From assembly GCF_053078305.1 (NCBI RefSeq), contig NZ_CP166879.1: a stretch of 64,000 bases of DNA; one strand, written 5' to 3'. The translations under genes were made by a program, and so were the position numbers. Below are positions 57,410 through 60,037 of the stretch, one piece after another. The stretch's first letter is position 1. The number at the start of each line of letters is the position of its first letter. The notes below the pieces were generated by a model. The model searched no databases and was not told the origin of the DNA. It saw only the letters and a list, made by a program, of their open reading frames with translations.

Positions 57410-60037
57410 ATGAGCGACCTTGCGAGAGAAATTACACCGGTCAACATTGAGGAAGAGCTGAAGAGCTCATATCTGGATTATGCGATGTCGGTCATTGTTG
57501 GCCGTGCGCTGCCAGATGTCCGAGATGGCCTGAAGCCGGTACACCGTCGCGTACTTTACGCCATGAACGTACTAGGCAATGACTGGAACAAAGCCTATAA
57601 AAAATCTGCCCGTGTCGTTGGTGACGTAATCGGTAAATACCATCCCCATGGTGACTCGGCGGTTTATGACACGATCGTCCGTATGGCGCAGCCATTCTCG
57701 CTGCGTTACATGCTGGTAGACGGTCAGGGTAACTTCGGTTCCATCGACGGCGACTCTGCGGCGGCAATGCGTTATACGGAAATCCGTCTGGCGAAAATTG
57801 CCCATGAACTGATGGCCGATCTCGAAAAAGAGACGGTCGATTTCGTTGATAACTATGACGGCACGGAAAAAATTCCCGACGTCATGCCAACCAAAATTCC
57901 TAACCTGCTGGTGAACGGTTCTTCCGGTATCGCCGTAGGTATGGCAACCAACATCCCGCCGCACAACCTGACGGAAGTCATCAACGGTTGTCTGGCGTAT
58001 ATCGATGATGAAGACATCAGCATTGAAGGGCTGATGGAACACATCCCGGGGCCGGACTTCCCGACGGCGGCAATCATTAACGGTCGTCGCGGTATTGAAG
58101 AAGCTTACCGTACCGGTCGCGGCAAGGTATATATCCGCGCCCGTGCTGAAGTGGAAGTTGACGCCAAAACCGGACGTGAAACCATTATCGTCCACGAAAT
58201 TCCGTATCAGGTAAACAAAGCGCGCCTGATCGAGAAGATTGCGGAACTGGTAAAAGAAAAACGCGTGGAAGGCATCAGCGCGCTGCGTGACGAGTCTGAC
58301 AAAGACGGTATGCGCATCGTGATTGAAGTGAAACGCGATGCGGTCGGTGAAGTTGTGCTCAACAACCTCTACTCCCAGACCCAGTTGCAGGTTTCTTTCG
58401 GTATCAACATGGTGGCATTGCACCATGGTCAGCCGAAGATCATGAACCTGAAAGACATCATCGCGGCGTTTGTTCGTCACCGCCGTGAAGTGGTGACCCG
58501 TCGTACTATTTTCGAACTGCGTAAAGCTCGCGATCGTGCTCATATCCTTGAAGCATTAGCCGTGGCGCTGGCGAACATCGACCCGATCATCGAACTGATC
58601 CGTCATGCGCCGACGCCTGCAGAAGCGAAAACTGCGCTGGTTGCTAATCCGTGGCAGCTGGGCAACGTTGCCGCGATGCTCGAACGTGCGGGCGACGATG
58701 CTGCGCGTCCGGAATGGCTGGAGCCAGAGTTCGGCGTGCGCGATGGTCTGTACTACCTGACCGAACAGCAAGCTCAGGCGATTCTGGATCTGCGTTTGCA
58801 GAAACTGACCGGCCTTGAGCACGAAAAACTGCTCGACGAATACAAAGAGCTGCTGGATCAGATCGCGGAACTGCTGCGTATTCTTGGTAGCGCCGATCGT
58901 CTGATGGAAGTGATCCGTGAAGAGCTGGAGCTGGTTCGTGAACAGTTCGGTGATAAACGCCGCACTGAAATCACCGCCAACAGCGCAGACATCAACCTGG
59001 AAGATCTGATCACTCAGGAAGATGTGGTCGTGACGCTCTCTCACCAGGGCTACGTTAAGTATCAGCCGCTTTCTGAATACGAAGCGCAGCGTCGTGGCGG
59101 GAAAGGTAAATCTGCCGCACGTATTAAAGAAGAAGACTTTATCGACCGACTGCTGGTGGCGAATACCCACGACCATATTCTGTGCTTCTCCAGCCGTGGT
59201 CGCGTCTATTCGATGAAAGTTTACCAGTTGCCGGAAGCCACTCGTGGCGCGCGCGGTCGTCCGATCGTCAACCTGCTGCCGCTGGAGCAGGACGAGCGTA
59301 TTACCGCTATCCTGCCGGTGACCGAGTTTGAAGAAGGCGTGAAAGTCTTCATGGCGACTGCTAACGGTACTGTGAAGAAAACCGTCCTCACCGAATTCAA
59401 CCGTCTGCGTACCGCCGGTAAAGTGGCGATCAAACTGGTTGAAGGCGATGAGCTGATCGGCGTTGACCTGACCAGCGGCGAAGACGAAGTAATGCTGTTC
59501 TCCGCCGAAGGTAAAGTGGTGCGCTTTAAAGAGTCTTCTGTCCGTGCGATGGGCTGCAACACCACCGGTGTTCGCGGTATTCGTTTAGGCGAAGGTGATA
59601 AAGTCGTCTCTTTGATCGTGCCTCGTGGCGATGGCGCAATCCTCACCGCAACGCAGAACGGTTATGGTAAACGTACCGCAGTGGCGGAATACCCGACTAA
59701 GTCGCGTGCGACGAAAGGGGTTATCTCCATCAAGGTTACCGAACGTAACGGTTTAGTTGTTGGCGCGGTGCAGGTAGATGACTGCGACCAGATCATGATG
59801 ATCACCGATGCCGGTACGCTGGTACGTACTCGCGTTTCGGAAATCAGCATCGTGGGCCGTAACACCCAGGGCGTAATCCTCATCCGTACTGCGGAAGATG
59901 AAAACGTGGTGGGTCTGCAACGCGTGGCTGAACCGGTTGACGAGGAAGATCTGGACACCATCGATGGCAGTGCTGCGGAAGGAGACGACGAAATCGCTCC
60001 GGAAGTGGACGTTGACGACGAGCCAGAAGAAGAATAA
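57410..60037 (+). CDS. gyrA: DNA gyrase subunit A
   Basis: 875 aa; [47 protein letters not shown]; active-site Tyr region, acidic C-terminal tail; QRDR reads GDSAVYD (Ser83, Asp87). Confidence 0.97.

Follow-up and report, generated by a model that had tools for sequence, protein, structure and literature searches.

We analyzed a stretch of 64,000 nucleotides (nt), referred to below as the window, and found that its gyrA gene carries a wild-type quinolone-resistance-determining region (QRDR). The comparisons described here make it almost certain that the gene is the sole gyrA copy on an Escherichia coli-type chromosome and that it encodes a full-length, functional GyrA with the ancestral residues at the fluoroquinolone contacts. 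A wild-type gyrA QRDR at this locus is already known, routine biology and raises no new biological question. Its practical meaning is that of a negative resistance call, of use only as a single entry in a resistance genotype.

Identity and integrity of the gyrA gene

The features of the gyrA locus on which the analysis is based are the following.

57264..57409, plus strand: ubiG-gyrA intergenic region of 146 nt with the gyrA promoter and leader, 100% identical to K-12 in a global alignment
57410..60037, plus strand: gyrA coding sequence (DNA gyrase subunit A), 875 codons and a stop codon, complete and uninterrupted in the ORF list and translation
57608..57727, plus strand: QRDR, codons 67-106, compared with K-12 in a codon table
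57641..57670, plus strand: ten-residue motif, codons 78-87, in the helix alpha-4 region contacting the drug
57656..57658, plus strand: Ser83 codon TCG, wild type by K-12 codon comparison
57668..57670, plus strand: Asp87 codon GAC, wild type by K-12 codon comparison
57773..57775, plus strand: codon TAT of the catalytic Tyr122, directly preceded by Arg121, within AAMRYTE at residues 118-124
59087..59107, plus strand: GyrA box QRRGGKG, residues 560-566
59441..59443, plus strand: codon 678, GAA (Glu) in the window and GAC (Asp) in K-12, the only amino-acid difference from K-12 and 6RKS
59933..60034, plus strand: acidic C-terminal tail, residues 842-875

The gene was compared codon by codon with gyrA of K-12 MG1655 (b2231). 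Both genes are 2628 nt long, no indel was found, and the 52 nucleotide differences (1.98% of the DNA) comprise 51 synonymous changes and one non-synonymous change, D678E. This ratio of 51:1 indicates that gyrA is under strong purifying selection. The encoded protein resembles K-12 GyrA (NP_416734.1) in its length of 875 amino acids, in 874 of the 875 residues, in genomic position, and in the upstream region, and it shares with it the whole QRDR, Tyr122, the GyrA box, and the acidic tail. Given this 874/875 identity to the characterized E. coli enzyme, we infer that the protein supports negative supercoiling together with GyrB.

E. coli GyrA has been solved at full length in 6RKS and 6RKU, while 1AB4 and 3NUH cover the N-terminal domain and 1ZI0 the C-terminal domain. 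When aligned by phmmer to the full-length E. coli GyrA chain of PDB entry 6rks_A, residues 1-875 of the window protein matched residues 1-875 of the chain without a gap, and D678E was the sole mismatch. A Pfam search placed the breakage-reunion domain (DNA_topoisoIV) at residues 32-507 and detected six DNA_gyraseA_C repeats, which correspond to the blades of the C-terminal beta-pinwheel. The gene order yfaL, ubiG (divergent), gyrA, yfaA, yfaT is the conserved, canonical E. coli arrangement, and gyrA was present at an identity of at least 95% in 5425 of 5,426 complete E. coli genomes.

We asked whether the motif could instead belong to the paralogue parC, encoding topoisomerase IV subunit A, or whether a shifted numbering could have mislabeled Ser83 and Asp87. 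E. coli ParC has the same fold and a near-identical motif, with a homologous N-terminal breakage-reunion domain and an equivalent Ser/acidic pair on helix alpha-4, and parC models and topoisomerase IV chains in the PDB also matched the window protein strongly. However, the parC_Gneg model TIGR01062 gave 581.5 bits, short of the 628.9 bits that it requires. In the NCBIfam profile search, the gyrA equivalog TIGR01063 reached 1309.7 bits against a cut-off of 877, and NF004043 matched with 1258.7 bits (cut-off, 902). The GyrA box is a hallmark of gyrase C-terminal domains and separates gyrase from topoisomerase IV. Both this box and the acidic tail are found in the window protein, whereas ParC has neither, and the gene occupies the ubiG-gyrA-yfaA position. 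The first-pass annotation had named codon-level alignment with a reference gyrA as the check on its residue numbers. In such an alignment the numbering is not misregistered, since the comparison is gapless from residue 1 to residue 875 against both K-12 and 6rks_A. The K-12 codon comparison, the 6rks_A alignment, and the NCBIfam scores together refute parC identity and misnumbering, the probability of which is virtually nil.

The wild-type reading could also be an artefact caused by a consensus error or a mixed population, or gyrA could be inactive. The yfbK gene, in another part of the window, probably carries a 1-bp indel, so that sequence errors are possible in general. Against this stand the intact 875-codon ORF, the conservation of every catalytic hallmark, the predominance of synonymous changes, and the fact that 2013 other complete genomes share the 30-mer of codons 79-88 exactly. 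We consider an artefact or an inactive gene vanishingly improbable and retain the reading of a functional, chromosomal gyrA.

An antisense ORF of 323 amino acids (57572..58543, minus strand) overlaps the QRDR site. It lies wholly inside gyrA, had no Pfam match, and was rejected as a shadow ORF.

The QRDR residues are those of quinolone-susceptible K-12

Codons 67-106 are the classical QRDR, reportedly as defined by Yoshida et al. in 1990. All 40 amino acids encoded by these codons in the window (40/40) are the same as in quinolone-susceptible K-12. The codons TCG and GAC at positions 83 and 87 bear out the first-pass annotation, which had called the QRDR wild type with Ser83 and Asp87 unchanged. 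Its further statement that this allele has no chromosomal fluoroquinolone-resistance signature agrees with the match of the QRDR residues to susceptible K-12, and the interval it had assigned, 57640-57680, contains the ten-residue motif, starting one base before codon 78 and ending at the first base of codon 91. The motif is read in frame within a complete gyrase A gene, which removes chance as an explanation.

The known resistance positions Ala67, Gly81, Asp82, Ser83, Ala84, Asp87, and Gln106 are all unchanged in comparison to K-12, and so are the positions Ala51, Ala119, and Ala196 that have been reported outside the QRDR. Every other position considered in resistance studies is also unchanged, because the protein departs from K-12 at residue 678 only. 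At the DNA level, three of the 51 silent differences from K-12 fall in the QRDR, at V85 (GTC to GTT), R91 (CGC to CGT), and Y100 (TAT to TAC). A literature search on silent polymorphisms at codons 85 and 91 returned Helicobacter and tuberculosis papers only. The HinfI site GACTC, which spans codons 82-83 at 57653-57657, is intact; this site has classically served to screen for Ser83 mutations.

Wild type is the commonest QRDR state in complete E. coli genomes

A census of QRDR states was conducted in 5,426 complete E. coli genomes by searching for the exact 30-mer over codons 79-88 in both silent versions of codon 85. Since megablast requires an exact word of 28 bases, a central mismatch abolishes the match of a 30-mer. 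The wild-type state at codons 83 and 87 was found in 2652 genomes (48.9%; 2013 with GTT85 and 639 with GTC85) and is the commonest single QRDR state in this collection, in which it is, if anything, under-represented because the collection is skewed to clinical isolates. The double mutant S83L + D87N followed with 1702 genomes (31.4%), of which 1371 had GTT85 and 331 had GTC85. S83L alone was present in 485 genomes (8.9%; 413 with GTT85 and 72 with GTC85), and the remaining 587 (10.8%) had other variants at codons 83 and 87.

The clinical fluoroquinolone-resistant alleles with S83L or S83L + D87N are versions of the same gene on the same silent background, and most S83L + D87N alleles are carried by the GTT85 haplotype that is also seen in the window. 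They differ from the window, which belongs to the wild-type class of the census, in having TTG instead of TCG at codon 83 and AAC instead of GAC at codon 87.

One gyrA copy with S83L + D87N in the E. coli genome collection (not in the window) sits on a record typed as a plasmid. The replicon may have been mis-typed, or a plasmid may have picked up a piece of the chromosome.

Expected drug sensitivity and the scope of the call

A water-metal ion bridge links quinolones to E. coli gyrase and is anchored by Ser83 and Asp87 (PMC9917921). Both residues are part of helix alpha-4, and it is by this bridge that the keto-acid of the quinolone makes contact with the enzyme. A gyrase with both bridge residues present would be expected to be fully drug-sensitive. 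Here, it is the sequence state that was observed directly, while the sensitivity of the enzyme is an expectation drawn from published biochemistry. Ser83 and Asp87 are both present, and the allele should therefore add no target-mediated fluoroquinolone resistance.

The wild-type call holds for gyrA only and not for the susceptibility of the strain. The genes of the 64-kb window are nuoM-N, yfb genes, elaD, the men and arn operons, pmrD, glp genes, inaA, nrdAB, yfaL, ubiG, gyrA, yfaA, and yfaT, with no other fluoroquinolone determinant among them. The strain phenotype cannot be called, because parC, parE, gyrB, marR/acrR/soxR, and the plasmid-borne qnr, aac(6')-Ib-cr, oqxAB, and qepA are outside the window.

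D678E shows the pattern of a lineage polymorphism

The substitution D678E is located in the C-terminal DNA-wrapping domain and is a conservative change from Asp to Glu. A Thai survey describes it in isolates of ST405, ST38, ST1193, and ST448, and a Chinese survey in the majority of its Shigella sonnei isolates. When the surveys list D678E in resistant isolates, it is usually found together with S83L/D87N. A Shigella study groups D678E with gyrA changes whose role "needs to be further studied" (PMC10269460). No effect of D678E on susceptibility is reported in the literature that we found on this substitution.

As the one amino-acid change in the protein, and one repeatedly named in resistance surveys, D678E raises the question of whether the allele is phenotypically wild type. 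Together with the rarity of the DNA haplotype (9 of 5425 genomes are at least 99% identical and none is identical), this could mean that D678E or the unusual silent-site haplotype alters quinolone susceptibility, gyrase activity, or expression. However, a long distance separates residue 678 from the pocket for cleavage and drug binding, which is built by the N-terminal domain together with GyrB. The change at this position is conservative, and the gyrA promoter and leader are the same as in K-12. Moreover, the substitution follows sequence type (ST405, ST38, ST1193, and most S. sonnei) and co-occurs with S83L/D87N, as a lineage marker does. We regard an altered phenotype as extremely unlikely. 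D678E has the pattern of a known lineage polymorphism, that is, of a phylogenetic marker and not of a selected resistance change.

The ubiG-gyrA tract is nearly identical to that of one distant genome

The gyrA DNA of the window had no identical match in the 5,426 complete E. coli genomes, and nine genomes reached at least 99% identity. The nearest gyrA was that of E. coli OkiPb01695 from bovine feces in Okinawa, which encodes the identical protein (WP_001281251.1) and is one silent base off the window, at 59612 (L735, TTG versus CTG). For the 25-kb segment 39001-64000, the best identity among the 5,426 complete RefSeq E. coli genomes was 98.8%. The genomes nearest to the window come from animal and water sources (otter, pig, baboon, cattle, and fresh water). 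The lineage of the window is without a representative among these 5,426 complete RefSeq genomes.

The similarity to OkiPb01695 is uneven along the DNA. The tract 56326-60249 (approximately 3.9 kb), which spans ubiG and gyrA, contains one difference. In contrast, 69 differences were counted in the yfaL part (54905-56325) and 38 on the yfaA side (60250-62016). OkiPb01695 additionally differs from the window by IS91 insertions in yfaL, yfaT, and elsewhere in the region, with flanks that are approximately 2-6% divergent. This mosaic identity over 54905-62016 is consistent with recombination or with hypervariable flanks. The case for recombination comes from the near-identity of the tract to one distant genome next to flanks with 2-6% divergence. 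It could be extended to the proposal that the gyrA haplotype, with D678E on its rare silent-site background, was exchanged between lineages by homologous recombination as a ubiG-gyrA tract of approximately 3.9 kb, perhaps with a subtle effect on wrapping by gyrase, the supercoiling set-point, or the quinolone response. We consider this proposal highly unlikely.

Other features of the window

Next to ubiG, the yfaL/ehaC autotransporter adhesin gene (52654-56400, plus strand) is intact and encodes 1248 amino acids with an autotransporter beta-domain and an autochaperone domain. Relative to K-12 it diverges more than any other gene of the neighborhood, and in OkiPb01695 it is disrupted by IS91. 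An intact divergent pair at 45050-47270 consists of genes for a LysR-family regulator (45050..45928, minus strand) and an MFS transporter (46080..47270, plus strand), both of which are truncated by an IS91 insertion in OkiPb01695.

In an Rfam scan of the whole window, the only match at the gathering threshold was the REP-derived, nucleoid-associated RNA naRNA4 (49546-49616, plus strand; 64.6 bits, threshold 59.5). Its site is a junction in the alignment of the window to the nrdA-nrdB region of OkiPb01695.

At 7376-9102 (plus strand), yfbK, whose product combines a vWA domain with a YfbK_C domain, is broken up into two overlapping ORFs, 7376..8380 and 8323..9102. The cause is a single-base deletion at approximately 8254/8255, where the window reads GGCGGT-CCGGG versus GGCGGTGCCGGG. 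Apart from this missing base, all 1728 nt agree with yfbK of E. coli ET350, which is intact. The 1-bp frameshift either has recently made yfbK a pseudogene or comes from an error in the sequencing.

Finally, approximately 2 kb between nuoN and yfbM (3598-5661) is absent from OkiPb01695 and present in ET350 and other genomes. Its genes encode a small protein with an SMI1/KNR4 family annotation and two hypothetical proteins that matched nothing in Pfam. The surrounding segment 3500-9200 was covered to at least 80% in only 936 of the 5,426 genomes, and 3598-5661 constitutes a variable islet.
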